In this document: in pieces, positions 7,648 to 53,401 of the stretch
Layout: each line of letters starts with the position of its first letter
How positions within the stretch are numbered: the stretch's first letter is position 1
Source: Candidatus Magasanikiibacteriota bacterium
Lineage (GTDB): Bacteria; Patescibacteriota; Patescibacteriia; Magasanikbacterales; UBA922
Assembly: GCA_041665025.1 (NCBI GenBank)
Contig: JBAYJP010000005.1
Coordinates: 11,056-75,055 of the forward strand
Length of the DNA stretch: 64,000 nt
Direction: 5' to 3'
Notes under the pieces: model-generated
The model's database searches: none
Seen by the model: only the letters and a program-made list of their open reading frames with translations
What the model was told of the DNA's origin: nothing
Translations under genes and position numbers: made by a program

Positions 7648-7816
7648 ATTATTTTTTACGTATGCTTTCTGTGGATAACTATTTTGCTTAACTCATTCAC
7701 AAAATGGTACTTTTGCACTCTTCAGAATGCTTGACCGTTTAGACAAGGCGTTTGTATACTCACAACGCCTGTTTTTATTATTTAATTTTTAAAACTAATT
7801 CTTTAACACATCCCCC

Positions 7817-9568
7817 ATGTTGTTACCCAAACGTCTCCTCTCGTTCTTTTTGGCTCTTTCACTTTTATTCACATTTTTCGGTAGTACGCTTGTATCTCCT
7901 GCAGTCGCATATGCAGCATCAAGCGTCTCTATGTCCCTCACTAGTAGTAATGCTCTTTTCGTCAATGAAACTAATTCACTCACTGTTTCAATGAAAGCAA
8001 ACAGTGCACTGCAAGACGCGCTTGTTGATTTCGAATTATACAATAGTTCAAATCAGCGAGTCGTTCAAAAAGTTTTTGAGCATGAAACTCTCGGGTTAAA
8101 TCAATCTCGTATATACACCCTTTCGTGGAAACCAACACAAACAGGCACGTATACATTGCGAACTGGTGTATTTACATCAAACTGGTCATCACTTATTCAA
8201 TGGGAAAATACAGCAGCAACATTTTCAGTGCAGGTTCGTCCTGTAGTAGCAACAACCGTGGCGCCTGCTTCTGCTGCAACAACCCAAGTGTGGTGGCCAT
8301 CTCAAAATGCGACCATATCAGGAGTACAACCATTTAAGGCTGTTCTTTCGGCTACGTCGCTTTCAGATTACCAGATGTATTGGCAGGTCGACGGCGGGCA
8401 GTTGAATTTTATGAACAATAGTTTAGTTGATGTTCCGCACAAAGAATCTCTGGTAAATGTATCGGGGTGGAATTGGAGAGGAAACGGCCCTTATACATTG
8501 AACTTTGTGGCAAAGAATGCAAGCGGTCAGACGATTGCACAAAAACAGGTAGCAATCTACATAGGCACATCTTCACAACAGACAGCGCCTGCGACACCTA
8601 CAACTCCTGTGGTAAATACAACCCAAACACAGACGACCCAAACAACAACTTCCCCTCCAACTCAAACATCTGCACCCGCACAAACTGCTACAGCGCCAAC
8701 CGCGACATCTGTTTCTGGTTTGTATGTAAATCCAAATTCTCCCGCATTGGTTCAAGCGCAACAATGGCAGAGTTCTCGTCCTGCTGATGCCGCACTTATG
8801 AAAAAAATTGGTGACCAGCCAAGCGCGCGATGGTTTGGAAACTGGAATGCCAATATATATACAGATGTAAAAAGTTATGTAGACGCTGCGGCAAGTGCTA
8901 ATGCGACTCCAGTACTTATTGCGTATAATATTCCTCAACGCGACTGCGGTGGATATTCTGCAGGTGGTAGTAATGATCCAGCCGTGTATCGCCAGTGGAT
9001 CACAGATATGGCGCGTGGTATTGGCAATAGAAGCGCAATGATTATTCTCGAACCAGATTCTGTTGCTTTGAATGATTGTCTTTCTTCCACTGACAAACAA
9101 ACTCGTTTTGGTTTGCTCTCGTACGCCGTGGATACACTCAAAGCAAATTCAAACGCACGCGTATATATTGATGCAGGACACTCAAGCTGGGTAGGCGCGC
9201 AAGATATGGCAAATCGTTTGACACAAGCAGGTATTGCACGCGCAAATGGTTTTGCGCTCAATGTGTCAAATTTTTATTCGACACAAGACAACGTGAATTA
9301 TGGAACGCAAGTCTCTCAATATCTTAATGGTAAACACTTTGTCGTGGATACGTCACGGAATGGACGCGGATCAAATGGCCAATGGTGCAATCCGTCTGAT
9401 AGAGCGCTTGGTGAAAAGCCAACACTTAGTACAGGCAATTCACTTGTTGATGGGTTCTTGTGGCTTAAGACTCCAGGTGAATCAGATGGCTCATGTAATG
9501 GTGGACCTTCGGCAGGGCAGTGGTGGCCTGAATATGCGCTTGGGTTAGCACAGAGATCATCATGGTAA
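7817..9568 (+). CDS. Secreted glycoside hydrolase family 6 (cellulase/cellobiohydrolase-like) with a signal peptide and N-terminal Ig-like and X domains
   Basis: Signal peptide, then an Ig-like domain, then domain X (GVQPFKAVLSATSLSDYQMYWQVDGGQLNFM...). A Thr/Gln/Pro linker follows. The GH6 catalytic domain carries YNIPQRDCGGYSAGG, ILEPDSVAL, YIDAGHSSW and FLWLKTPGESDG. Confidence 0.8.
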   Translation: MLLPKRLLSFFLALSLLFTFFGSTLVSPAVAYAASSVSMSLTSSNALFVNETNSLTVSMKANSALQDALVDFELYNSSNQRVVQKVFEHETLGLNQSRIYTLSWKPTQTGTYTLRTGVFTSNWSSLIQWENTAATFSVQVRPVVATTVAPASAATTQVWWPSQNATISGVQPFKAVLSATSLSDYQMYWQVDGGQLNFMNNSLVDVPHKESLVNVSGWNWRGNGPYTLNFVAKNASGQTIAQKQVAIYIGTSSQQTAPATPTTPVVNTTQTQTTQTTTSPPTQTSAPAQTATAPTATSVSGLYVNPNSPALVQAQQWQSSRPADAALMKKIGDQPSARWFGNWNANIYTDVKSYVDAAASANATPVLIAYNIPQRDCGGYSAGGSNDPAVYRQWITDMARGIGNRSAMIILEPDSVALNDCLSSTDKQTRFGLLSYAVDTLKANSNARVYIDAGHSSWVGAQDMANRLTQAGIARANGFALNVSNFYSTQDNVNYGTQVSQYLNGKHFVVDTSRNGRGSNGQWCNPSDRALGEKPTLSTGNSLVDGFLWLKTPGESDGSCNGGPSAGQWWPEYALGLAQRSSW

Positions 9569-9570
9569 AG

Positions 9571-9632
9571 AACACGTAACACGTAGCACATAGCATATGA
9601 GACACATAACTATAACATGTAACTCATAACTA
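9571..9632. repeat. Short tandem-like repeats of the CACGTAACACATAAC type in a 3' UTR
   Basis: aacacgtaacacgtagcacatagcat...cacataactataacatgtaactcataac. Similar to 13510-13562. Confidence 0.4.
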
Positions 9633-9660
9633 AACAGTCCCGAGATAGTCGGGACTGTTT
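9633..9660 (+). terminator. Rho-independent terminator (acagtcccga-gata-tcgggactgt)
   Basis: Perfect 10 bp stem with a tetraloop, followed by a T-rich tract (TTTAGTT). Confidence 0.5.
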
Positions 9661-9729
9661 AGTTAACAATTTGTTCACTTGACAATGGTTCACATGGTAA
9701 ACTATACTAAAATAGTATAAATATACTAT

Positions 9730-10920
9730 ATGCGCACATTATTATACAACATCAAGACAAGCGAACTAACACCAGGCGGTATACTGCGTCTGACGGCTGT
9801 TCCGATGCGTCCACGAGATAGGATGTATTATAAACCAGGACAGTACGCCATGATTGCGTATGAACTTTCAAAAGAATACCAAAAGTTTCATTCCTTTAGT
9901 ATCGTAAGCAGTCCGCTTGATGAACATATTTCGTTTGCTATCAAAGTGTCTGGTCCATTCACGCAGTCACTCGCGAGTTTACCTATAGGTTCTCTTATCG
10001 CAGTGCGTGGTCCATATGGCTCTTTTGTTTTGCGTGAACACGATACCAAAGATAGTGTACTTTTTGCTGCGGGTATTGGCATCACACCATTTGTGAGCAT
10101 GTTGAGGTACGCACATGAGACACAACAGCCTCAGAATATTCATTTATTATATAGTGTTCGATCGTCATGTGATGTTCCATTTATTGATATTATCAATCAT
10201 ATTGGAGAGGATAATTCGCGGATACGTCCAACCATTACTGTCACCGGAGGCGAAGATATTGTGCCCCATGGTTTTATAAAAGGAAGAGTTTCAAAAGAAC
10301 TTATTGAGTCCATAATTCCACGTTCCATTCATGCAACCCGATTTTATATATGTGGTCCATCAGTATTTATTCACGCTGTAGAAGATATGCTGACTGAGTT
10401 AGCTGTACGTCAAAAATATGTATATACCGAAGATTTTGTTCCTTCGGCACGCGTATTATGGAAACAGCCAGTACCGCTTGTAGCAAGTACGGCAGCTATT
10501 GCCGCGTCGGTTTTTGTTTTTTCCCTTGCCACAAATGCGCACGATGTCTCTGCGTTTGCAGATAAATCTTTCAATCGGCTTAATACAATATTTAATGCGA
10601 CAGATGTAAATGCCGCGGTTACTAAACAAAGAGAACAAGTGTTGTCACAAGAACAATATGAAACATACAGCGTGCCGCAAATTACCACAGTGCTCGTGCC
10701 AAGGCAGACGGCTGAGCAGATCAGTGTTATGGAACAAACAGTAGTGACAAAACAAGTGACTGCACAGCCGATACCGCAAGCAGCTCCGGCAGTTGTCCAA
10801 AATCCACCGCGCTCTACAAGTCTAGCACCTCAACAAGTTGCAACTCCTGCTCCCGCTGCTGTACAGCCAAAACCAGTCATCATGCCCACTCCGCCGCCTC
10901 CACGAACACAGGTGTCATAA
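9730..10920 (+). CDS. FNR-type FAD/NAD(P)-binding oxidoreductase module with a C-terminal TM anchor and a Pro/Gln-rich tail
   Basis: FAD-binding RxYS-like motif HSFSIVSSP and an NAD-binding motif. A TM segment AAIAASVFVFSLA near the C terminus is followed by a PQ-rich tail PAAVQPKPVIMPTPPPP. Confidence 0.6.
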   Translation: MRTLLYNIKTSELTPGGILRLTAVPMRPRDRMYYKPGQYAMIAYELSKEYQKFHSFSIVSSPLDEHISFAIKVSGPFTQSLASLPIGSLIAVRGPYGSFVLREHDTKDSVLFAAGIGITPFVSMLRYAHETQQPQNIHLLYSVRSSCDVPFIDIINHIGEDNSRIRPTITVTGGEDIVPHGFIKGRVSKELIESIIPRSIHATRFYICGPSVFIHAVEDMLTELAVRQKYVYTEDFVPSARVLWKQPVPLVASTAAIAASVFVFSLATNAHDVSAFADKSFNRLNTIFNATDVNAAVTKQREQVLSQEQYETYSVPQITTVLVPRQTAEQISVMEQTVVTKQVTAQPIPQAAPAVVQNPPRSTSLAPQQVATPAPAAVQPKPVIMPTPPPPRTQVS

Positions 10921-10995: not shown

Positions 10996-11499
10996 ATGAG
11001 AAAAAAATATCTCCACATATACAGTTTTTTAGCAGTTTTTCTTATTGCTTTTTTTGCGTGTGCGCCGTCGTTATACGTGCATGCAGAAGATGAGGACGAG
11101 GCTTTCAAACAAGAAATAGAGCGTGTTCGTGAAGAACAAAAACAAGAGCTTGAAAGAGAGCGTGAAGAAGAAAAAAAAGAGGATGAGTACGAAGCAGAAA
11201 GAGAGGATGAATATGAAGATGAAGATTACTTTGAAGGGCCTCAACAAGTCCAGCCACAACCCGAACCTATTGTCGAGGAACAGCCGCTCGAACAACCAGT
11301 GGCACAACAACCAATTATGACTCAAGTAACTGAAACAGTCCCCACAACTCGCGTAGTTGAAAAGCCCGTAATACAAATGGTAGAACAATATCAAACAACG
11401 TATGTAACGCAATATAGAAAGACAAATAACTATATTGTGAGTGATGTAAATATGAATGGCGTAGTTGATCAATTTGAATTGATCGTGGCAGGTAGTTAG
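10996..11499 (+). CDS. Secreted highly acidic protein (Glu/Asp-rich) with a Pro/Gln linker
   Basis: Signal peptide MRKKYLHIYSFLAVFLIAFFACA; an EDEDE/EREREEEKKEDEYE low-complexity stretch; C-terminal DVNMNGVVDQFEL. Confidence 0.4.
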   Translation: MRKKYLHIYSFLAVFLIAFFACAPSLYVHAEDEDEAFKQEIERVREEQKQELEREREEEKKEDEYEAEREDEYEDEDYFEGPQQVQPQPEPIVEEQPLEQPVAQQPIMTQVTETVPTTRVVEKPVIQMVEQYQTTYVTQYRKTNNYIVSDVNMNGVVDQFELIVAGS

Positions 11500-11570: not shown

Positions 11571-12539
11571 ATGTATTGGACATTCGGCTTTGATGCCTGG
11601 GATACAACGATTTCCGGCACGGTAGATGTCGGAGAAAAGTATGACGAATCGACGTTGGCTGATTTGGAACAGCAATTAAAAGCTGACGCAGAAATGTACG
11701 CGAAGATATGTTCACGTTTTGATAACGCAAGTGAGATATCGCAGTTGAATGAACAAACTGATAACGAAGTGGTTGTGAGTGAACGACTGTCTGATATGTT
11801 GGAAAAGGCGCAAAAGACCTATAGGGAGACACACGGCATATTTGACCCTACAATTTTGAAAGCTCTTGAACATAGTGGGTATGATAAAACATTTTTGAAT
11901 ATCTCTGATGATGATCCATCAACCCATATATACGAAAAACGTGATTTGATTGTGAGACAACACGCGGGACGTCCCCAGTTTAGTGAAATAAGACTACACA
12001 AAGATAAACACAGCGTATATATGCCGCTTGGCATGCGGATTGACCTTATGGGAATTGCAAAAGGGTATTGGGTAGATTATGCGGTTGAACAATTTTTTTC
12101 TGAATATCAATCATTGTGGCTTTCCGCAGGTGGAGATATATATGTGAAAGGCATGGATGAAAAACAAGAGCCGTGGAAAATTATAGTGCAAGATCCGTTT
12201 GACCTTTCAAATAATATCGGCTATTTTACGCATACAGCCAAAAAAGATTTTGGTGTTGCGACATCGGGTATTACGAAGCGCATGGGTATGAGTGGGGCAG
12301 GTAAATGGCATCATATTATTGATCCACGTACTGGCTTGCCATCAGAAAGTGATGTCGTATCAGCTACAGTTTGCGCGCCGAGTGTGGCAGATGCGGATGT
12401 GTATGCCAAGACTGCGGTTATACTCGGGTCTCACCAAGCGCATTTATTTTTTTTATCACGTCCGGAATGTGAGTATGTGCTTGTGGATGTGAATGGGCGA
12501 GTGTATTATTCTCAAAACTTGTCATTCCGAGCGACCTAA
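11571..12539 (+). CDS. apbE: FAD:protein FMN transferase (ApbE family)
   Basis: ApbE motifs IDLMGIAKGYWVDYA, LSAGGDIYVKG and GAGKWHHIIDPRTGLP. Confidence 0.8.
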   Translation: MYWTFGFDAWDTTISGTVDVGEKYDESTLADLEQQLKADAEMYAKICSRFDNASEISQLNEQTDNEVVVSERLSDMLEKAQKTYRETHGIFDPTILKALEHSGYDKTFLNISDDDPSTHIYEKRDLIVRQHAGRPQFSEIRLHKDKHSVYMPLGMRIDLMGIAKGYWVDYAVEQFFSEYQSLWLSAGGDIYVKGMDEKQEPWKIIVQDPFDLSNNIGYFTHTAKKDFGVATSGITKRMGMSGAGKWHHIIDPRTGLPSESDVVSATVCAPSVADADVYAKTAVILGSHQAHLFFLSRPECEYVLVDVNGRVYYSQNLSFRAT

Positions 12540-17828: not shown

Positions 17829-19550
17829 TTAATATACATTTATGCTTCTTGTCCCTTGAGCGATCACACTACCCTGTGCATTCTTTGCAATAAAGGTGAT
17901 ATTGTATGGTCCGGCACCTTTCCAGCCCCACAAACTCACGTCAACCAATGCTTCTTTGTGCGGATAATCTACGTTGCTATCTGCCATACTGTTTAATTGT
18001 CCGCCATCTACTTGCCAATACATAGTGTATTGGGATACGTCGAGACCTTCTACCATTGCCTTGAATGGTTGGACACCTGATGCCGTTATATCACTGCTCG
18101 GCCACCATATATTCACTGCTCCTGAAGAAGGTGGCGGAGTTGGAGGTGGCGTATTTTGGGTTACTGATATAGATGCCGTGTTTGCATTCCATAAATAATT
18201 TTGTGTCCAGTTACTATTGAATATGCCAATCACGACCGTGTATGATCCAGCTACTGTCGGCGTCCAGTTCATGTTGTATTGTTTTGTCTCACTTGCGATA
18301 AAAATTTGTTTGTCAAAAAATTGTTGGTGTATTTTAGTATTTGAACTGTCATATATCTCAACATCGATTATTGTATTGTTTATTGCGTCTCCAGTATTAG
18401 TGATACTCGCGCCAATTTGTATGGGTGTGTTTATTGTGGTCATGTTTGGTGTTGCGGAGACTGCCTGTGTAAAAGAAATTTTTGTTGGCGGGGGAGTAGG
18501 TGCCGTGCCTCCGGCGAACCATGTGCGCATGGTCGTTTCTGCTAATTTGTTTTGTGGCGTGAAGTCCATATCGCCTTGTCCGCCTGCATTTGGATTGCTA
18601 TTCCAGTCCCACAATTGTACACCAACCATGTAGTCATAATTATTCCAATATGAAAATAATGCTTCATACAGTCGTGATTGATTTCCTTCGTCAAATCCGC
18701 CTCCAGCCCAATAATTAAATGGTTCCCACTGAGCCCAGTTCATACTGCGATATCCAACTTCGGTAAACAAAATAGGTTTATTGTATGCATTACGTAAGTT
18801 TGCAATATCATTTTTATTTATGACGTCCCATTTTTGCGTATATGATTGTACTGACGTGTCGTTTGTCGTGAGGGGGAAATAGGCAGATATACCGACATAA
18901 TCCAACGCATCCCAAAATTTGATTCTATTTTTTTCATCGACCCATTGTCCTTGTGCGCCCCAGTTTGCGCTATATGTTAGTTTTCCGGAAAATACCGTCC
19001 GTGTATAGGCAATGAGGTCGCGCCAATTTTGCGTATTGCTCCCATTTGCATTGTCGGCTGACATATTGATAAGTTCTGCGCCAATGGTCATTTCTTCTAC
19101 ATTGTTTGACTGAGCCAGACTGGCATAATGGCCTAGTACTGTTTTGTAGTTGGCAAACCATCGCGCCCGATCTCCTGGATTTATATTGGCGCGCCACTGT
19201 CCGTCATCTGATTCCAAATGAATTTTTATATTTACTGCCATGCTTTTGCTATGAATATATTGAACACCGGCAGCTAGGGAACCGTCTGTGGGCGTATTCC
19301 AATCCCGGTATAAATCTGTCGTCCATACGTTTGCTTGTTTGTAGGGAATAATGAGTGTAATGTAGTTTGCATTTGCGTTTTTTGCATTGTCAATGGATTT
19401 TTTGAATGAATCGCTGCTAAAGTCTGTATTCCAGTTCGGGCGAATGGAAACACCTTTTTGCCAATTTGAAATAGCAGCCTTACTCATGAGAGGCACTGTA
19501 AGAAATATGGCAGTGATGAGTATATAAATTGTGTATTTTAGTTTGGTCAT
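17829..19550 (-). CDS. Secreted clan GH-A (TIM-barrel) glycoside hydrolase (mannanase/cellulase-like) with C-terminal Ig-like and X domains
   Basis: Start proposed at MTKLKYTIYILITAIFLTVPLMSKA (signal peptide). Candidate acid/base block IGAELIN and nucleophile block ILFTEVGY. The C-terminal X domain GVQPFKAMVEGLDVSQYTMYWQVDGGQLNSM is homologous to the N-terminal region of the GH6 protein at 7817. Confidence 0.55.
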   Translation of the reverse strand: MTKLKYTIYILITAIFLTVPLMSKAAISNWQKGVSIRPNWNTDFSSDSFKKSIDNAKNANANYITLIIPYKQANVWTTDLYRDWNTPTDGSLAAGVQYIHSKSMAVNIKIHLESDDGQWRANINPGDRARWFANYKTVLGHYASLAQSNNVEEMTIGAELINMSADNANGSNTQNWRDLIAYTRTVFSGKLTYSANWGAQGQWVDEKNRIKFWDALDYVGISAYFPLTTNDTSVQSYTQKWDVINKNDIANLRNAYNKPILFTEVGYRSMNWAQWEPFNYWAGGGFDEGNQSRLYEALFSYWNNYDYMVGVQLWDWNSNPNAGGQGDMDFTPQNKLAETTMRTWFAGGTAPTPPPTKISFTQAVSATPNMTTINTPIQIGASITNTGDAINNTIIDVEIYDSSNTKIHQQFFDKQIFIASETKQYNMNWTPTVAGSYTVVIGIFNSNWTQNYLWNANTASISVTQNTPPPTPPPSSGAVNIWWPSSDITASGVQPFKAMVEGLDVSQYTMYWQVDGGQLNSMADSNVDYPHKEALVDVSLWGWKGAGPYNITFIAKNAQGSVIAQGTRSINVY

Positions 19551-19564
19551 AAAATTTAAGTTAT

Positions 19565-19641
19565 CTAGGTTGGCTAAGTTGACTAAGTGTAAATTGTACA
19601 CATTTTTGAACTTAGGTACTTAGTTAACTTAGCCAACCTAG
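19565..19641. repeat. Perfect 16 bp inverted repeat CTAGGTTGGCTAAGTT ... AACTTAGCCAACCTAG between two genes of the polysaccharide cluster
   Basis: Arms at 19565-19580 and 19626-19641 with a 45 nt loop. Lies between the stop of the GT-C/GH8 gene and the start of the GH-A gene. Confidence 0.5.
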
Positions 19642-19650
19642 TAAACTCAG

Positions 19651-22245
19651 TTAGTTTTTCGTCAACTGTGTCTGCCACAAATTTGGCGTATTATTTGCAT
19701 ACAGCGCTGTGGCAAACCATGCCCAGTTTTGTGTGTAATAGTTTTTGTCATCGCCCCACTTGCCATTGTGGAACATAGACCAAAAATGATCGCTATATAT
19801 ATCTATTGATTTTTCCGATTGAGAAATATCGAGCGCCGAAAGTGCTCCTGCGTATGTGCTAATGTCATCAAAATTTGCCACAGGGGTTCCGTCTATTTTG
19901 TATCGAGCCTCAATAACATGATCTCTGTCCCATTGTTTGATATAAAATTTTGACACTTGCTCAAGATATGCTTTAGCTTCTGTACTTTCAAACCATTTGG
20001 CATCAAGGGCGAGCCGCCACATGAGACGGAATGCATCGTAGCCATAAATATCGGCGTCTTTTTTTACATGCTCGGCGCTTTCGTAATCTCCCAAGCTCGT
20101 AAGCAAAAACCAATTGGGCACCAGTCCAGTATTATTTTTAAATGTAGGCGATTGCTTTAGTTGAGCTAGTATCACGTACACATCTTCGGCAAGCGCATCC
20201 CAGTTATGGTTTTTATCTATCTGAGCAAATATTTTGTATGATGCCGGAGAAAAATATGATGGATTGATAAGATAACCCGTCTTTGTGTCAGCGCCAGACG
20301 TGAGATAGAGTGTACCATCTACTTCGATAACTCGATTTTCCCAAATACTGTCGAGTATTTCACGGGCGCGTTCCATATATATAGGATCTCCCCACTGCTT
20401 GTAGGCAAACAAAAGTGCAAGTGCGATATCCTCGTCCGCGTCAGTTGCAGTAGAGTAATCCAAAATTGCCTCCGTGCCAGTCGTATTTTTTCCATAGAGC
20501 CACGCGTAGAGTTTGTTACCAGGTAATTTCATGTTATCTTCGGACCAGGAAAATACGCGATCAAATGTTTTTTTGTCTCCCTGCCATACGGCACGTAATA
20601 GTGAATATGATTGTCCCTCAGAGGTTGTAATATTATCTGCTTTAGGATCAATTGTCTTTCCATCTCGCGTAATAAATTCCTTTTTGTATACTTCCCAGCT
20701 TTTCTGGATCACACCATCTTTATTATTTACTTCGCGTATTTCGACCGGGTATCCTTCATCTAAAATATCATAATTATTAAATCGTTTGATAACATGTGAA
20801 TTTTCATATGCTGTCTGCACGAGCGGCAGGGTATCATTGTAGATATTTATGGTAAGTGCTGGAGTAAATAGGAGGTAATCTATACGTTTCCAATCATTAT
20901 TTAAAACAGCGTATTGAACTTGCGGATCAGTGTCTGCTTTCCAATAATAATGTATATTTGTCTTCTCAATATCTTTGAGATTGGGATTTAAATCGACAAA
21001 TGGGTAGTTGTCAATGAGTGTTACTGAACGGGGATTCAAATTATCTTTTACCCATCCAACTGCCTGCACTTGGTTGTACGTTTGGTCAAGAGAAAAAATA
21101 TACCATTTTTGAGAAAGTTCAAAGACGAGTATCAGTGAAATGATTGAAAGTATTCCGAAACGTATAGGCATAAGTGCCACCGGATCTTTTTTCTTCACCC
21201 TTTCTATCACCTGATCTGATAGTAATGCGATACTTATAGAGAAAAGGGCCATGAGCGGTATGATATACCAGTCGAGAACTTGTCCTCTCAGTATAAAGAG
21301 TGTATAGGATAGGCTCATGAGTGCGATCAAAAAAGACCATTTTTTTCTAAATAATAGTACATGTATTATGCTTGCACCGGCTCCTAAAAATAAAAAGAAC
21401 GGCGCGTATGGTAGCCATGTGGTTTGCAATGAGTAGAGAAACGTACTGGTTGATTGCCGATTGATATGAAATCCAAGTGCCTCCATAAGGCTGACGTGGG
21501 GCTGTGTTCCTCCAAGCACTGTACCGCTTGGAAAAAATTCTCCTTTGAGGAGTGCAAATACGGGGTACATTGATATGGCAAGTGAAGCAATGCTTATCCA
21601 TACGACAATGGCAAAATGTTTATTATTTTTGTGTGCTTGCAGTGCGATAATGGCACTCATGCCGACGATAAAAGGGGCTGCGGATTCTTTGGTAAGCACG
21701 GCCATGGCAAACATTATCGCGCTTGCAATGATATATTTAAGACGCATAGGCTTGGTCAGAAGATAGAGCGACCACAAGAACCAAAACATCATAATATTAT
21801 CCAAAAGCACTCTACGATGGAGCATAACAGATAGTGGCGTTATGCTAAATAAGATTGCGGCTATGGCAGAAGGAAATTTTCGTCTTGTTATATTCCATGT
21901 TATGTTATATACAAAATACGTTGAGAAAATCTGTAATATTGCCACAAACAGTCGACCGGTATTTGCCGTCAGACCGCCCATAAAAAAGTCATTCCCCGTA
22001 AAGAAATTCCACAAGGCAATAAAGATCCACCCAAGCGGTGCGTGATCATACCAATAGGTGTATGAGGCCAGTTCGTGTTGGTTTATTACCGCCCAGGCCT
22101 GAGACATATACGTGCCCTCGTCTTCTCGATATGAAGGAAATCCAAACATGTTGGTCATATGCACAAAAGCTGACGCAAGAAGTATTGCTAGGAGTATCCA
22201 ATGTTCTTTGAGCCAGTTTGATTGTGCAATTTGTTCTTTGACCAT
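19651..22245 (-). CDS. Fusion protein: N-terminal GT-C-fold membrane glycosyltransferase (PMT/ArnT-like) plus C-terminal glycoside hydrolase family 8
   Basis: 864 aa. About 11 TM helices with a DE motif in the first loop (FPSYREDEGTYMSQAW), as in GT39/GT83. The C-terminal part has the GH8 proton-donor block TTSEGQSYSLL and the GH8 signature ATDADEDIALALLFAYKQW. Confidence 0.7.
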   Translation of the reverse strand: MVKEQIAQSNWLKEHWILLAILLASAFVHMTNMFGFPSYREDEGTYMSQAWAVINQHELASYTYWYDHAPLGWIFIALWNFFTGNDFFMGGLTANTGRLFVAILQIFSTYFVYNITWNITRRKFPSAIAAILFSITPLSVMLHRRVLLDNIMMFWFLWSLYLLTKPMRLKYIIASAIMFAMAVLTKESAAPFIVGMSAIIALQAHKNNKHFAIVVWISIASLAISMYPVFALLKGEFFPSGTVLGGTQPHVSLMEALGFHINRQSTSTFLYSLQTTWLPYAPFFLFLGAGASIIHVLLFRKKWSFLIALMSLSYTLFILRGQVLDWYIIPLMALFSISIALLSDQVIERVKKKDPVALMPIRFGILSIISLILVFELSQKWYIFSLDQTYNQVQAVGWVKDNLNPRSVTLIDNYPFVDLNPNLKDIEKTNIHYYWKADTDPQVQYAVLNNDWKRIDYLLFTPALTINIYNDTLPLVQTAYENSHVIKRFNNYDILDEGYPVEIREVNNKDGVIQKSWEVYKKEFITRDGKTIDPKADNITTSEGQSYSLLRAVWQGDKKTFDRVFSWSEDNMKLPGNKLYAWLYGKNTTGTEAILDYSTATDADEDIALALLFAYKQWGDPIYMERAREILDSIWENRVIEVDGTLYLTSGADTKTGYLINPSYFSPASYKIFAQIDKNHNWDALAEDVYVILAQLKQSPTFKNNTGLVPNWFLLTSLGDYESAEHVKKDADIYGYDAFRLMWRLALDAKWFESTEAKAYLEQVSKFYIKQWDRDHVIEARYKIDGTPVANFDDISTYAGALSALDISQSEKSIDIYSDHFWSMFHNGKWGDDKNYYTQNWAWFATALYANNTPNLWQTQLTKN

Positions 22246-22266: not shown

Positions 22267-24390
22267 TTATATTGACGTCGGGCTGGTTCGTTGGACTGCA
22301 CGATGTGCATTCACATGCGCTGTCTTTTCCCATGTATTTTTATGTCGCATTTCTCTCACTACTGCGCGCAGAGAAGAATAGCCGAGAATTATCTGGTAAG
22401 GTAAAAATGTGATAAGTAATTTAAACATGATCCAGCGTGGGTATTTCAAATTATATTTTTTGGTGAACTCGTATAATCCAATATTGAGAACAATAAAATT
22501 TATCACGAGCATATACAGAGGCAGTATAGACAGCAAAGTAACAAGTATGGGAAGCTTTACGGTAAATATCATGACTATCGACGCAATAATATATATGAAT
22601 AGAAATGCCTGAATTTCGGGCCAGATAAGCATGTATGCCACAAAAAATCTTTGTGAGATAAGCGGCAGGTTTTTCCATTCCTTTTTTTTAAATACTTGCA
22701 AGAATCCTTGATTCCATCTGGTACGTTGTTTGATAAAACTGCCTAATGTTTCGGGCGTTTCTTCCTGGGTCGCGTGAATTTCATCATAAATAATTCTAAT
22801 TTTTGCTCCCGCTGCGCTCAATTTGATCCCGATATCCGCATCTTCAGTGAGGCAATTCGCATCCCATCCTTCAATTTTATGCAGCCATTCACGTTTGAAA
22901 AATACGGTGTTGCCTCCGAGAGGTATGACATGACGTAGAGCAAAGAAATGGAGCACTGATTTAAACCAGAAAAAATATTCAAGAACATTTAAGGTCGAAA
23001 ACCAATTGGATCGGAAATTGATGAGCTGTACTCCAGATTGCACGACATCCGCGTCATCTCGTATCATGACGGTGTTTATCACTTGATAAATATCTGCATG
23101 CGGAGAATCCTCGGCATCAAACACACACACAATGTCGTGATGTGCGTATTCAAGGGCAAAATTAAGTTTGTCTGGTTTGTTTTTTGGTACGTAGGTAGGT
23201 ACAAGTAGCTGGATATTAGTTTTACCAAGCTCTTTAATTTTATGTTGTACAGCCTCTATCGTTTCGTGGTCATCAGATCTACATACGATAATAATCTCTG
23301 TAAGGTGTTCAGGATATTCTATCTGTGCGATTGCCTGCATAGTTTCTGCAATAACATTTTTTTCATGTAAAGCAGGTACAATGGCAGTAAATGAATAGAG
23401 CGGCGCATAAAAACTTTTTGGCGACTGATTTTGTTCAACGCGTGCAGGGTCGTCCCATGCAAACATCATGCCGGTTAGGGTAAATATACTTTGGATTACA
23501 ATAGCGACTGAGAGAAGTAGAAACAGCAAAATAAGAATATTAGATATTGTTGCAATATTGGCTGTTACGAGGTATATAGAGATTGCGGACAAAAGTATTA
23601 TGATGCCGGAGACTATATACCAGGCAAAGGGACTAAATCCAAGATATATTCGTTTAAGCCGTATGCGCAGGGCGTTATATATGAATTCAGATATATCATG
23701 GAATGACATTTTTGATTTGCCACTTGTACGTTCTTCAAAATGAATAGGCACCTCGACAATACGCGCATGGTTGCGTACTAATTCATCAAGCAATCTTATT
23801 TGAAAAGAAAAACCGCGCGCAGGAATAAAATTGAGAAACACTTTTTCAAGTGCTTCTGATTTAATTGCCTTAAATCCGCTTGTGCAGTCGTGTATGGGGT
23901 AAAGCCCCGCAAACCACCTTGCAATCAAGTTCGCAATTTTGCTATTGAGCCAGCGCATTGTAGACCACTGTGGGGGCAGACTTCCACCTTTGATATATCG
24001 AGACCCGAGTGCCACATCTGCGCCGAGTTCGAGTACCTGTAGCATAGGGGGAATATATTGTGGATTGTGAGAGAAGTCCGAATCCATTTGAATAATGGTA
24101 TCTGCCTTAAGAGCATTGAGTGCATAATTAAATCCTCGCTTATACGCAATACCCAATCCTTGTTTGTCTCCTTCAATAAGATGAATATTTTTTCGGGTCT
24201 TTCCGTATTGTTTCACAAGGTATGCCGTACCATCGGGGGAGTGGTCGTCTACTACGACAATATGTGTATCATATTTTTCATGTGGTATTAGTATTGATTT
24301 TATTTTTTTCATTAGGTCCACAATATTCCCACGTTCATTGTACGTAGGGATAATTATCGCAATAGTTTGTTTTTGTCTTGAACCGGGCAT
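22267..24390 (-). CDS. Tandem family-2 glycosyltransferase: N-terminal DPM-synthase-like GT2, TM region, then a processive beta-glycan synthase-like GT2 (D, DxD, TED, QRTRW)
   Basis: Domain 1: IIIPTYNERGNI...VVVDDHSPDGT...DSDFSH. Domain 2: IVPALHEKN...VFDAEDSP...CLTEDADIG...KQRTRWNQG. TM helices lie between the domains and after the second one. Confidence 0.7.
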   Translation of the reverse strand: MPGSRQKQTIAIIIPTYNERGNIVDLMKKIKSILIPHEKYDTHIVVVDDHSPDGTAYLVKQYGKTRKNIHLIEGDKQGLGIAYKRGFNYALNALKADTIIQMDSDFSHNPQYIPPMLQVLELGADVALGSRYIKGGSLPPQWSTMRWLNSKIANLIARWFAGLYPIHDCTSGFKAIKSEALEKVFLNFIPARGFSFQIRLLDELVRNHARIVEVPIHFEERTSGKSKMSFHDISEFIYNALRIRLKRIYLGFSPFAWYIVSGIIILLSAISIYLVTANIATISNILILLFLLLSVAIVIQSIFTLTGMMFAWDDPARVEQNQSPKSFYAPLYSFTAIVPALHEKNVIAETMQAIAQIEYPEHLTEIIIVCRSDDHETIEAVQHKIKELGKTNIQLLVPTYVPKNKPDKLNFALEYAHHDIVCVFDAEDSPHADIYQVINTVMIRDDADVVQSGVQLINFRSNWFSTLNVLEYFFWFKSVLHFFALRHVIPLGGNTVFFKREWLHKIEGWDANCLTEDADIGIKLSAAGAKIRIIYDEIHATQEETPETLGSFIKQRTRWNQGFLQVFKKKEWKNLPLISQRFFVAYMLIWPEIQAFLFIYIIASIVMIFTVKLPILVTLLSILPLYMLVINFIVLNIGLYEFTKKYNLKYPRWIMFKLLITFLPYQIILGYSSLRAVVREMRHKNTWEKTAHVNAHRAVQRTSPTSI

Positions 24391-24602
24391 ATAAGATACT
24401 GGATGATATATATCATACTAAATAAGTATGCTTTATATTCAGCATACTGCCTGCTCCTGCTCGTGTCAAATATTTTTTGCTTAATTTTATACAAACTTGT
24501 CCACAGAATTCACAATTTATACACAGTTAGTATGAATTTAAACTTGACATCAAATTTTTAGTTTATATTATACTAATATTAATAGGCCAGTTCACACGGC
24601 CG

Positions 24603-41420: not shown

Positions 41421-41427
41421 AATAAAG

Positions 41428-41501
41428 TGGGCATGGATGGACTTGAACCGTCGACATCCACCTTATAAGGGTGGCGCTCTAACCAACTGAGCTACATGCC
41501 C
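41428..41501 (-). tRNA. tRNA-Ile with a TAT (UAU) anticodon
   Basis: Reverse complement GGGCATGTAGCTCAGTTGGTTAGAGCGCCACCCTTATAAGGTGG...GGTTCAAGTCC...CATGCCCA. Ile-type D-arm; anticodon loop CTTATAA. One C-A mismatch in the T-stem. Confidence 0.7.
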
Positions 41502-51375: not shown

Positions 51376-51457
51376 GCCGATGTGGTGAAATTGGTATACA
51401 CGTACGCTTCAGGTGCGTATGTCGAAAGACGTGTGGGTTCGAGTCCCACCATCGGCA
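51376..51457 (+). tRNA. tRNA-Leu (CAG), class II with a long variable arm
   Basis: Acceptor GCCGATG/CATCGGC; anticodon stem TACGC/GCGTA with loop TTCAGGT; variable arm TGTCGAAAGACGT; T-arm GTGGG-TTCGAGT-CCCAC; followed by a T-run. Confidence 0.8.
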
Positions 51458-51549
51458 CTTTTTTTTCTTCAATTAATTATTAACGTTACTTCATATCGGA
51501 AGGGGAGGCCTCTAGTGTCTTCTTGCTGTATATGTGGTTTAAACATACA

Positions 51550-53401
51550 TATGGATACTATTACTTCATTTGCACCAAAGCCAGTTGTTGTTTCTAAAAC
51601 ACCTGGATCTTTTGTGCAGCGCAGAAATCCTTCTCGGGGAGGGACATTTGTAAAACAAAATAAGAGACAACAACAGGGTGGCGGATATTATAACCGCAAT
51701 AAACGAGCGCCTCAGACCGCATCATTTGGCGATGCATCACCTCGTCTTCGCATTATTCCATTGGGCGGTTGTGAGGAAGTCGGTCGAAACATGACGCTGT
51801 TTGAATATGGAGATGACATTGTCATTCTCGATATGGGCATTCAGTTTCCCGAAGAGGATATGCCCGGTATTGACTATATTATCCCTAATACCAAATATTT
51901 AGTGGGTAAAGAAAGCCATATACGCGGTGTTGTGTTTAGTCATGGACACCTCGACCATATTGGAGCAGCTCCCATATTGCTTGAAAAGTTGGGCAATCCT
52001 CCCATCGCAGGCCGCGATCTTACCCTTGCGCTTATAAAGCACAAACAGGAAGATTACAAAAAGAACTCATCCAAAAAACTCAAAATGATGCGCATAAAGA
52101 CGGTGCAAGATGTTATTAGACTGGGAAGATTTACCATTAAGTTTTTTCAAGTCGAACATTCAATTATGGATGCCGTGGGAGTAATTTTGGAAACGCCTGC
52201 AGCCACCGTGATTCATCCCGGTGATTGGACGCTTGATCGAGACGCTTCTGGCAAGCCGACTCTTGATTACAATTCTCTTTCGAAGTTGCGCAGGCCTACG
52301 GTGCTTATGCTCGAAAGTTTGGGTGCAACAAATGAAAAACGGTCAGGGACCTATGAAGATATGTATCATAATTTGCAGGAAGCCATGATGACTGCTCCGG
52401 GACGTGTTATTATTGGAACTTTTTCTTCTCAGCTTGAACGCATCAAATGGGTGCTCGACGCGGCTCAAAAGCTTGGCAAAAAAGTTGCGCTTGATGGGTA
52501 TAGTATGCGGATTAATGTTGAAATCGCAAAAGAGCTTGGCTATATTACGGTGAAGAAGGATATGCTTATTGACGTGCGTGAAGTTGAGAAATATCCTGAA
52601 AATAAAATTGTTGTTGTTTGTACCGGTGCTCAGGGAGAAGAAAACGCTGTGCTTATGAGAATTGTGAACGGACAGCATAAATACATTGATTTGAAAAAGA
52701 GCGACACCGTCATATTTTCTTCCTCAGTTATCCCGGGCAATGAGCGTTCTATTCAGAGACTTAAAGACAATATGTATCGCCGATGTGATAATGTGATACA
52801 TGGTGAGCTTATGGATGTGCATGTAAGCGGGCATGCGACACGCGAAGATATTACCGATATGCTCAATCAGATAAAGCCGACATATTTTATTCCGGTATAT
52901 GCGAATCATTATTTTTTGAAAGAAGCTCAAAAACTTGCAATAAAAAATGGTTTTCCTGTTGATAGAATTTTTGTGCCAGATAATGGGACGGTGATCGAAG
53001 TAGACAATAAAGGAGCACAAGTCCTGCCAAAGAAGATCGTGAGCGACTATGTATTTGTCGATGGGCTTGGGGTGAGTGATACACAAAACATTGTGCTTCG
53101 CGATCGCCAGGTACTTGCCGGAGATGGCATGGTCGTTGTCATTGCAACCGTTGACTCGAAGAAGGGCACGCTCATTCAAAATCCAGACATCATATCTCGC
53201 GGATTTGTATTTTTGAAAGATAACAAAGAGCTTATTGAAGATATAAGGCACAAAGTAAAACATTTGGTCATTCAATCAGACCCATTGTCTTGGGCAGACA
53301 CAAATCAAATAAAAAATGATATTCGTGAAAAGATAGGCCAGTTTATTTTTAGTAAGACTGAGAAGAGACCAATGATATTGCCCGTGGTGATTGAAGTATA
53401 A
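51550..53401 (+). CDS. rnj: Ribonuclease J with a basic N-terminal extension
   Basis: RIIPLGGCEEVGRNMTLFEYGDDIVILDMG and HGHLDHIGA (metallo-beta-lactamase fold), beta-CASP and C-terminal domains. The six-frame ORF start at 51413 overlaps the tRNA and is rejected. Confidence 0.8.

Follow-up and report, generated by a model that had tools for sequence, protein, structure and literature searches.

A conserved Ig-like module shared by GH6 and GH113 hydrolases of Patescibacteria as a candidate glycan-targeting domain

We analyzed a stretch of 64,000 nucleotides from a Candidatus Magasanikiibacteriota bacterium (NCBI GenBank assembly GCA_041665025.1, contig JBAYJP010000005.1, positions 11,056 to 75,055 of the forward strand), termed the window and numbered from its first nucleotide, focusing on two genes for glycoside hydrolases (GH) that share a non-catalytic two-domain cassette. 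The first gene (7817..9568, + strand) encodes a 583-residue protein consisting of a signal peptide, a CARDB-like domain, a second domain of about 95 amino acids (aa) that we call X, a Thr/Pro/Gln-rich linker and a GH6 catalytic domain. Its putative Sec-type signal peptide, read from the sequence, covers aa 1–33 (7817..7915, +), with a hydrophobic segment at aa 2–20 and a presumed cleavage site at ...SPAVAYA/AS. The first shared domain, a CARDB/Wzt_C-like β-sandwich, spans aa 35–142 (7919..8242, +) according to the envelope of our own hidden Markov model (HMM), and is followed by a short Ala/Thr linker and by X at aa 156–250 (8282..8566, +). The linker between X and the catalytic domain, as read from the translation, comprises the 50 residues 251–300 (8567..8716, +), and the catalytic domain, a short endoglucanase-type GH6 domain by Pfam and PDB comparison, occupies aa 301–583 (8717..9565, +).

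The second gene lies on the opposite strand (17829..19601, −) and encodes 590 aa if translation starts at a GTG at 19601 and 573 aa if it starts at an ATG at 19550, the latter also being the start used by NCBI (MFA6427697.1). Here the order is signal peptide, GH113 catalytic domain, Pro/Thr linker, first shared domain, Pro-rich linker and X. In the 590-aa numbering the catalytic domain, delineated with Pfam PF22612 and an alignment to 4cd6, comprises aa 59–347 (18561..19427, −), the second copy of the CARDB/Wzt_C-like β-sandwich aa 377–484 (18150..18473, −; own HMM envelope) and the second, carboxy-terminal copy of X aa 496–590 (17832..18116, −; BLASTP against the first copy). Both open reading frames (ORFs) were present as described in the original prediction, which had been made from the letters of this DNA alone.

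For the GH6 protein, the Pfam model Glyco_hydro_6 (PF01341) matched aa 316–562 with an E-value of 4e-66 and 224.3 bits against a gathering cut-off of 27, and the closest solved relative of the domain was M. tuberculosis Cel6 (1up0; E 3e-76). Its stretches YNIPQRDCGG and ILEPDS, which we take to be the GH6 signature motifs, aligned with the same motifs (RDC, EPD) of the M. tuberculosis enzyme. The catalytic role of the Asp residues in these GH6 motifs (..P.RDC.. and ..EPD..) is described in the literature (PMC9040799) and generally known. NCBI gives the name 'glycoside hydrolase family 6 protein [Candidatus Magasanikbacteria bacterium]' to a protein from a metagenome-assembled genome (MAG) that falls into the same 90% cluster. 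The second protein had been put down as a GH-A hydrolase; the clan was right, and the assignment could be narrowed to GH113 (PF22612, clan GH-A; E 1e-45, 156.8 bits, gathering cut-off 27). Its closest solved relative was the endo-β-1,4-mannanase AaManA of A. acidocaldarius (4cd6; E 9e-22), with GAEL aligning to GCEM and FTEVG to FMEVG; the aligned Glu residues are presumably the acid/base and the nucleophile. In NCBI this protein (MFA6427697.1) is named 'hypothetical protein'. Because the RDC and EPD motifs as well as both Glu-containing motifs are intact, the GH6 and the GH113 enzyme both look active. The amino terminus of the GH113 protein contains one hydrophobic segment and an SKA/A site, that of the GH6 protein the AYA/AS site, and we read both as Sec signal peptides.

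The comparison of the two proteins by BLASTP yielded a single strong local alignment, located outside the catalytic domains and pairing aa 64–247 of the GH6 protein with aa 406–587 of the GH113 protein (82 of 184 residues identical, 45%; E 2e-50). This confirmed that both proteins contain the same two domains in the same order, the CARDB-like domain followed by X, with the coordinates, the domain order and the motif originally proposed (GVQPFKA..YxMYWQVDGGQLN..PHKE..W.W.G.GPY..F.AKNA.G) all correct and the motif directly readable in the alignment. The cassette is amino-terminal in the GH6 protein and carboxy-terminal in the GH113 protein, in line with the proposed use at opposite ends of two different catalytic domains. 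Taken individually, the X copies share 60% identity over 90 aa (E about 1e-35) and the first-domain copies 33% over 76 aa (E about 1e-15). No third copy was detected in the window by tblastn with both cassettes and with each domain at E≤10. Compared as DNA, the cassettes reach an identity of only about 67% in their best-matching 147 nucleotides (nt), which rules out a recent duplication, gene conversion or an assembly artefact, and the shared cassette thus goes back to an old duplication or shuffling event. The exact or >90% identical proteins in NCBI were MFA6427697.1 and MFA6427687.1 (Candidatus Magasanikbacteria), and the nearest GTDB genome, UBA11699, contains both genes at a distance of about 9 kb.

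A candidate novel module had been suggested, and for the first domain novelty did not hold. The window copies matched several Pfam models below their gathering thresholds, namely Wzt_C (E 4.6e-4, 20.6 bits, cut-off 30.4), BatD (20.3 bits, cut-off 24.1) and BsuPI for the first copy and CARDB (E 0.019, 15.6 bits, cut-off 22.7) for the second, and homologues of the domain in other genomes pass the thresholds of CARDB (29.4 bits), BsuPI (34.1 bits) and BatD (25.3 bits). A weak sequence match in the PDB pointed to the P. furiosus CARDB domain (2kl6/3idu; E 0.0025). The AlphaFold2 (AF2) model, calculated from a 35-sequence alignment, comprises seven strands with a predicted local distance difference test (pLDDT) score of 93.9. 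Foldseek placed it closest to the carbohydrate-binding domain of Wzt (7k2t, 6o14, 8dku; E 9e-6 to 2e-5) and to the CARDB protein PF1109 (3idu; E 3e-5), with E-values ranging overall from 9e-6 to 5e-5 and template modelling (TM) scores from 0.64 to 0.75. Since its relatives pass the CARDB, BsuPI and BatD thresholds and its model matches Wzt and CARDB structures, the first domain is a member of the known CARDB/Wzt_C-like sandwich superfamily and not novel. The Wzt branch of this superfamily binds a sugar cap. The likeness to CARDB (PF07705) and Wzt_C (PF14524) concerns the first domain only and lies in the fold match to the carbohydrate-binding domain of A. aeolicus Wzt and to P. furiosus PF1109 (E 9e-6 to 3e-5, TM 0.65–0.75), in the weak sequence match to 2kl6/3idu and in the relatives that pass the Pfam thresholds, whereas both window copies remain under every Pfam gathering threshold.

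In contrast, X matched no known carbohydrate-binding module (CBM), FN3, PKD or Big family, and for this domain the proposed novelty stood. A Pfam hmmscan (2025 copy) of the window X yielded no match at E≤10, with PKD appearing at E 0.04 in two of nine relatives, and no NCBIfam model (release 20) matched X. In the wider family PKD matches occurred in 3 of 84 members, their place within the protein not being located, and ten long members scanned singly gave none; for proteins made of X alone no precomputed Pfam domain is listed. A search of all PDB sequences with the X profile returned only Ig C-kappa (kappa constant) domains at an E-value of about 0.04. For lack of a match, we rejected an assignment of X to any known Pfam or NCBIfam domain (FN3, PKD, Big, CBM_X2 and others). 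We likewise rejected the possibilities that X arose by divergence from the first domain (hhalign probability 0.7%) or is a lytic polysaccharide monooxygenase (LPMO)-like domain, since LPMOs need a His as mature residue 1 and X is internal or carboxy-terminal. In public records X proteins are named 'hypothetical', 'glucanase' or 'GH6 family protein', and our literature search found no paper describing the X module or the Patescibacteria GH6/GH113 cluster.

The AF2 model of X, based on a nine-sequence alignment, is an eight-strand sandwich with a pLDDT of 96.6 and a predicted TM score (pTM) of 0.86, predicting an Ig-like β-sandwich fold with high confidence. Foldseek of this model against the PDB gave nothing at E≤1e-3, and hence no close structural match to a solved CBM, FN3, PKD or Big member. 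The best neighbours (TM 0.55–0.67, 8–14% identity) were Ig, Fn3 or filamin-type domains, including the Ig-like domain of C. fimi Man26A (2x2y/3tp4), the X1/Fn3-like module of CbhA (3pe9) and the carboxy-terminal domain of a GH157 enzyme (9g4n). Such accessory sandwiches as nearest neighbours, together with the generic Ig-like fold, speak for X being a structural spacer or stabiliser without a ligand, providing the catalytic domain with reach, protease resistance or thermostability. A spacer role has been proposed for Fn3-like X1 modules and for many Ig-like domains of glycoside hydrolases, and the X2/CBM_X2 modules of scaffoldins are further Ig/Fn3-like 'X modules' of this class. With the CbhA and Man26A modules X has in common the fold class and the kind of host protein, in addition to their rank among its top Foldseek neighbours. 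However, 8–14% identity and E-values of at least 1e-3 give no evidence of homology, and the conservation of X far exceeds what is usual for these modules.

The extent of this conservation became apparent from mean pairwise identities within sets of equal architecture. Among proteins combining GH113, the first domain and X, the values were 0.54 for X, 0.48 for the GH113 domain and 0.36 for the first domain; among proteins combining X and GH6, in which the first domain is absent, they were 0.52 for X and 0.55 for the GH6 domain. X is therefore as conserved as the catalytic domains, the first domain clearly less so, and such a degree of conservation argues against a passive spacer. In 118 X copies, 17 positions are at least 95% conserved (GH6 protein numbering): W159, W160, P161, G169 (borderline), K174, Y185, W189, V191, D192, M199, H208, K209, E210, W218, W220, Y226 and F230. 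These include five Trp residues and an HKE triad. In the AF2 model W218 and W220 fall in a loop that lacks regular secondary structure. W189 belongs to the hydrophobic side of a central strand and probably forms part of the core. A spacer usually shows little conservation, whereas the near-invariant positions of X include polar and charged residues; the Pro/Thr linkers of the window proteins imply that X is not packed on the catalytic domain; and tandem arrays of two or five X copies as well as fusion to six GH folds argue for an autonomous function. Taking both sides together, we regard a ligand-free spacer as quite unlikely.

The X family comprises 461 representatives (50% clusters) at E≤1e-3 among 1.84 billion, 160 at E≤1e-30, with up to five tandem X copies per protein. 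GTDB species genomes contained 121 confirmed X stretches, and the counts of taxa, architectures and neighbourhoods given below refer to the 79 loci listed out of these. About three quarters of the 79 are labelled Patescibacteria, namely Magasanik-, Doudna-, Adler-, Kaiser- and Saccharibacteria, Paceibacterota and Peribacteria, and a minority carries labels given as Chloroflexia, Acidobacteriota, Gemmatimonadetes or Proteobacteria. The X hydrolase genes of loci L004, L011, L014, L030, L034, L035, L038, L042, L046, L047, L054 and L078 come from MAGs labelled Gammaproteobacteria, Chloroflexia, Acidobacteriota, Burkholderiales, Pseudomonadales or Gemmatimonadetes. Either a real spread beyond the Patescibacteria or errors in binning or labelling could account for them. 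We also noted a metagenomic representative of 4676 aa (P0037) with 32 partial matches to the carboxy-terminal third of the X profile and four CARDB-like copies, probably an Ig-repeat surface protein, which shows the last hairpin of X to be similar to a motif common in Ig repeats.

We determined the architecture of 96 X-containing ORFs from these loci, using our own HMMs for X and the first domain (abbreviated Ig below) and phmmer for both catalytic domains. The most frequent form was GH113-Ig-X (35 of 96), followed by X-X-GH6 (20) and X-GH6 (16), X alone (9), Ig-X-GH6 (5), Ig-X (4), GH113-X (3), GH113-Ig-Ig-X (2) and X-X (2). The common denominator of the family is thus X. The shared pair behaves as a typical unit only in part: GH113 enzymes as a rule carry it as their tail (37 of 40 in the GTDB loci), but it is found in just 5 of 41 GH6 proteins, so that the Ig-X-GH6 protein of the window is a minority form and GH6 proteins usually contain X or X-X. 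Next to its ortholog, the X of the window GH6 protein has its nearest relatives in the X domains of GH113-Ig-X proteins (identity 0.60–0.67 versus a family mean of ~0.5), consistent, if weakly, with a transfer of the cassette from a GH113-type to a GH6 gene.

Pfam analysis of 84 complete X proteins identified GH113 in 38, GH6 in 35, GH5 in 4, GH44 in 2, NPCBM in 2 and PA14 in 1, and metagenomic representatives added partners from GH5 (with five X copies), GH12 (with three), GH8 and GH44. Of these, the GH5, GH12 and GH8 domains precede X in the protein. X is accordingly partnered almost exclusively with β-1,4-glycanases, from six GH families. The modular use of X at either end of a protein, which the original prediction had described for two enzymes, was thereby corroborated and widened to GH5, GH8, GH12, GH44 and peptidase M23. 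Two metagenomic proteins (P0051 and P0058) combine a peptidase M23 with CARDB-like domains and a carboxy-terminal X and are, together with the FG-GAP protein P0075, the sole proteins identified with a non-glycanase partner.

Based on these properties, we propose that X is a non-catalytic, CBM-like targeting module that holds secreted β-1,4-glycan hydrolases on their polysaccharide, a proposal to which we assign a probability of roughly one half. Within this scheme, the endoglucanase-type GH6 and the mannanase-type GH113 enzyme would be exported by their Sec signal peptides, each joined via flexible Pro/Thr linkers to the same cassette of a CARDB/Wzt_C-like sandwich and X, with a β-1,4-linked glycan as the likely ligand of X. 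That X binds a glycan, and which one, we infer from architecture, conservation and gene context. The structural neighbours of the predicted fold, being accessory sandwiches of glycoside hydrolases, also count in favour of the proposal. Modules such as CBM2 and CBM3 are used in a similar manner, at either terminus, singly or in tandem and joined by linkers. X likewise is a small autonomous β-sandwich occurring at the amino or carboxy terminus, single or in tandem, with Pro/Thr linkers in both window proteins; it possesses conserved aromatic residues and is common to GH5, 6, 8, 12, 44 and 113. It differs from the CBM2/CBM3 class in having no sequence or close structural similarity to it, in a range centred on Patescibacteria and in that its binding is inferred.

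The same arrangement could also serve cell-surface retention, with X binding not the substrate of the enzyme but a component of the producer's envelope (peptidoglycan, a secondary wall polymer or the S-layer) and thereby keeping the hydrolases on a single-membrane cell, similar to SLH or LysM domains or to a lipid anchor such as that of the Streptomyces GH6 enzyme CslZ. Apart from a signal peptide that looks cleavable, the window proteins possess no anchor, and X can be used at both termini as well as in tandem. The peptidase M23 joined to X in some proteins belongs to a family of cell-wall endopeptidases, and CslZ itself is membrane-tethered (PMC9040799). Yet a general anchor would be expected on many kinds of exported proteins, whereas about 95% of the complete X proteins are β-1,4-glycanases, and X matched no SLH, LysM, CWB or other wall-binding family. 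We therefore consider envelope retention unlikely as a separate role; should the neighbouring glycosyltransferase described below make the envelope polymer, it merges with glycan targeting.

The genomic context of the GH113 gene provides further indications of the nature of such a glycan. In the window, three genes follow each other on the minus strand with gaps of 21 and 49 nt. The first gene of this putative operon (22267..24390, −), preceded by a consensus-like promoter match at 24469..24441 (−), encodes a two-module family 2 glycosyltransferase (GT2; Glyco_tranf_2_3 E 2e-40, Glycos_transf_2 E 4e-36, with a further Pfam match to Glyco_trans_2_3) that has TED and QRTRW motifs and six hydrophobic segments. 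Its second module, with these motifs and the carboxy-terminal membrane segments, bears the sequence hallmarks of the processive β-glycan-synthase type. The second gene (19651..22245, −) encodes an 864-aa protein in which a PMT/GT-C-like membrane domain (Pfam PMT, E 6e-8) is fused to a BcsZ-like GH8 domain (Glyco_hydro_8, E 4e-45); it has seven hydrophobic segments and matches NCBIfam BcsZ at E 3e-38, below the cut-off of that model. The GH113 gene follows after the 49-nt gap.

For the comparison across genomes, all ORFs of the 79 loci were clustered. The recurrent neighbours of X genes were a cellulose-synthase-like GT2 (32 loci), a PMT_2-type membrane protein (28) and a GH8 (24). A GH8, GT2 or PMT_2 gene was located within 6 kb of the X gene at 36 of the 79 loci, and all three, in a fixed or mostly the same order, at 18. 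The usual layout has the X gene on one strand, followed by the PMT, GT2 and GH8 genes on the other. Related GH8/GT2/PMT_2-like loci, which occur in many Patescibacteria genomes, include L005, L025, L040, L045, L061, L062, L065–L068, L074 and L080. Our literature search found no description of a GH8/GT2/PMT_2-like cluster beside X hydrolase genes.

Since X genes often adjoin this set of GH8, processive GT2 and PMT-like genes, the glycan bound by X may be a self-made cellulose-like polymer laid on the cell envelope, in parallel to the pairs CslA and CslZ or BcsA and BcsZ. In Streptomyces, CslZ is encoded together with the cellulose-synthase-like CslA, and CslZ and the LPMO LpmP are needed to place a cellulose-like glycan outside the peptidoglycan (PMC9040799). 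The likeness to the Streptomyces cslA-glxA-cslZ and the bacterial bcsA-bcsZ systems lies in a QxxRW-type processive GT2 beside a GH8 and near GH6 and GH113 hydrolases, and in a Streptomyces GH6 enzyme taking part in the deposition of a self-made β-glucan (PMC9040799). Differences are the PMT/GT-C-like membrane protein found here and the lack of GlxA, BcsB and PilZ among the Pfam matches of the neighbouring genes, for which no dedicated search was made; moreover, CslZ is a lipoprotein without an accessory module, whereas the window enzymes carry X.

This synteny would equally suit a docking function, in which X or the Ig-X pair gathers the GH6, GH113 and GH8 enzymes on a common protein partner, for instance the extracellular face of the GT2 or PMT-like synthase, to form a complex for synthesis and trimming. 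Ig-like domains commonly mediate protein contacts, as is generally known, X genes are syntenic with the GH8, GT2 and PMT-like genes at the 36 loci mentioned, and in Streptomyces the membrane-tethered CslZ and LpmP interact physically (PMC9040799). On the other hand, no candidate receptor domain co-varies with X in our data, 43 of the 79 loci have no such cluster nearby, and tandem arrays, with as many as five X copies in a GH5 protein, are better explained by avidity for a polymer than by protein docking, which leaves this function improbable.

Returning to X as a glycan-targeting module, several observations weigh against it. Pfam, the PDB profile search and Foldseek revealed no similarity of X to any characterised CBM, and to our knowledge neither the X1/Fn3-like module of CbhA nor the Ig-like module of Man26A is an established carbohydrate binder. 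Peptidase M23 (twice) and FG-GAP repeats (once) as partners of X instead of a glycanase fit a cell-envelope anchor as well as a CBM. Furthermore, the 43 loci lack a GT2, PMT or GH8 neighbour within the fetched flank, and in the window itself the GH6 gene sits outside the GT2/PMT-GH8/GH113 cluster, 8 kb away. In our assessment, X is best regarded as a new family in an already familiar class, the β-sandwich accessory and binding modules of glycoside hydrolases. A bolder extension would make X the founder of a new CBM family essentially specific to Patescibacteria (CPR) and the mark of a conserved, undescribed envelope-glycan system of processive GT2, PMT/GT-C-like protein, GH8 and X-tagged GH6, GH113 and M23 enzymes, with which ultra-small host-dependent bacteria would build and trim a cellulose-like surface polymer, possibly for host attachment; we judge this doubtful and offer it tentatively.

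As a family, X is useful for the annotation of carbohydrate-active enzymes (CAZymes) and of Patescibacteria surfaces, and not surprising in kind. A large part of bacterial diversity belongs to the Patescibacteria, almost all of them uncultured and with few annotated surface functions, and X, tagging nearly all of their GH6 and GH113 enzymes, offers a cheap and testable handle. Should X bind cellulose or mannan, it would constitute a new CBM family and improve CAZyme annotation. Binding of a self-made polymer would instead point to a cellulose-like envelope glycan system in Patescibacteria, and 'cellulases' counted in metagenomic studies of carbon cycling would then stand for envelope remodelling and not for the degradation of plant biomass.

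Some further features of the window were noted. The GH6 gene is flanked by a promoter-like site upstream (7731..7760, +) and by a terminator-like hairpin with a 17-bp stem on its 3' side (9627..9665, +), each a consensus match only, and is probably monocistronic. Downstream on the same strand follow a FAD/NAD-binding oxidoreductase with ferric-reductase-like domains and a Pro/Gln/Ala-rich carboxy-terminal tail of ~100 residues (9730..10920, +), an unannotated 167-aa ORF (10996..11499, +) and an ApbE flavin transferase (11571..12539, +). This set, conserved in a Magasanikbacteria relative (L003), may constitute an extracytoplasmic flavoprotein set. Further along, ARAGORN identified a tRNA-Ile with the anticodon TAT (UAU) at 41427..41501 (−), where Rfam confirmed a tRNA; the UAU anticodon is uncommon in bacteria, AUA usually being read by a modified CAU tRNA. 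Finally, a mechanically listed 662-aa ORF with a GTG start (51413..53401, +) overlaps a tRNA-Leu(CAG) at 51376..51458 (+), and its true start is probably located further downstream.

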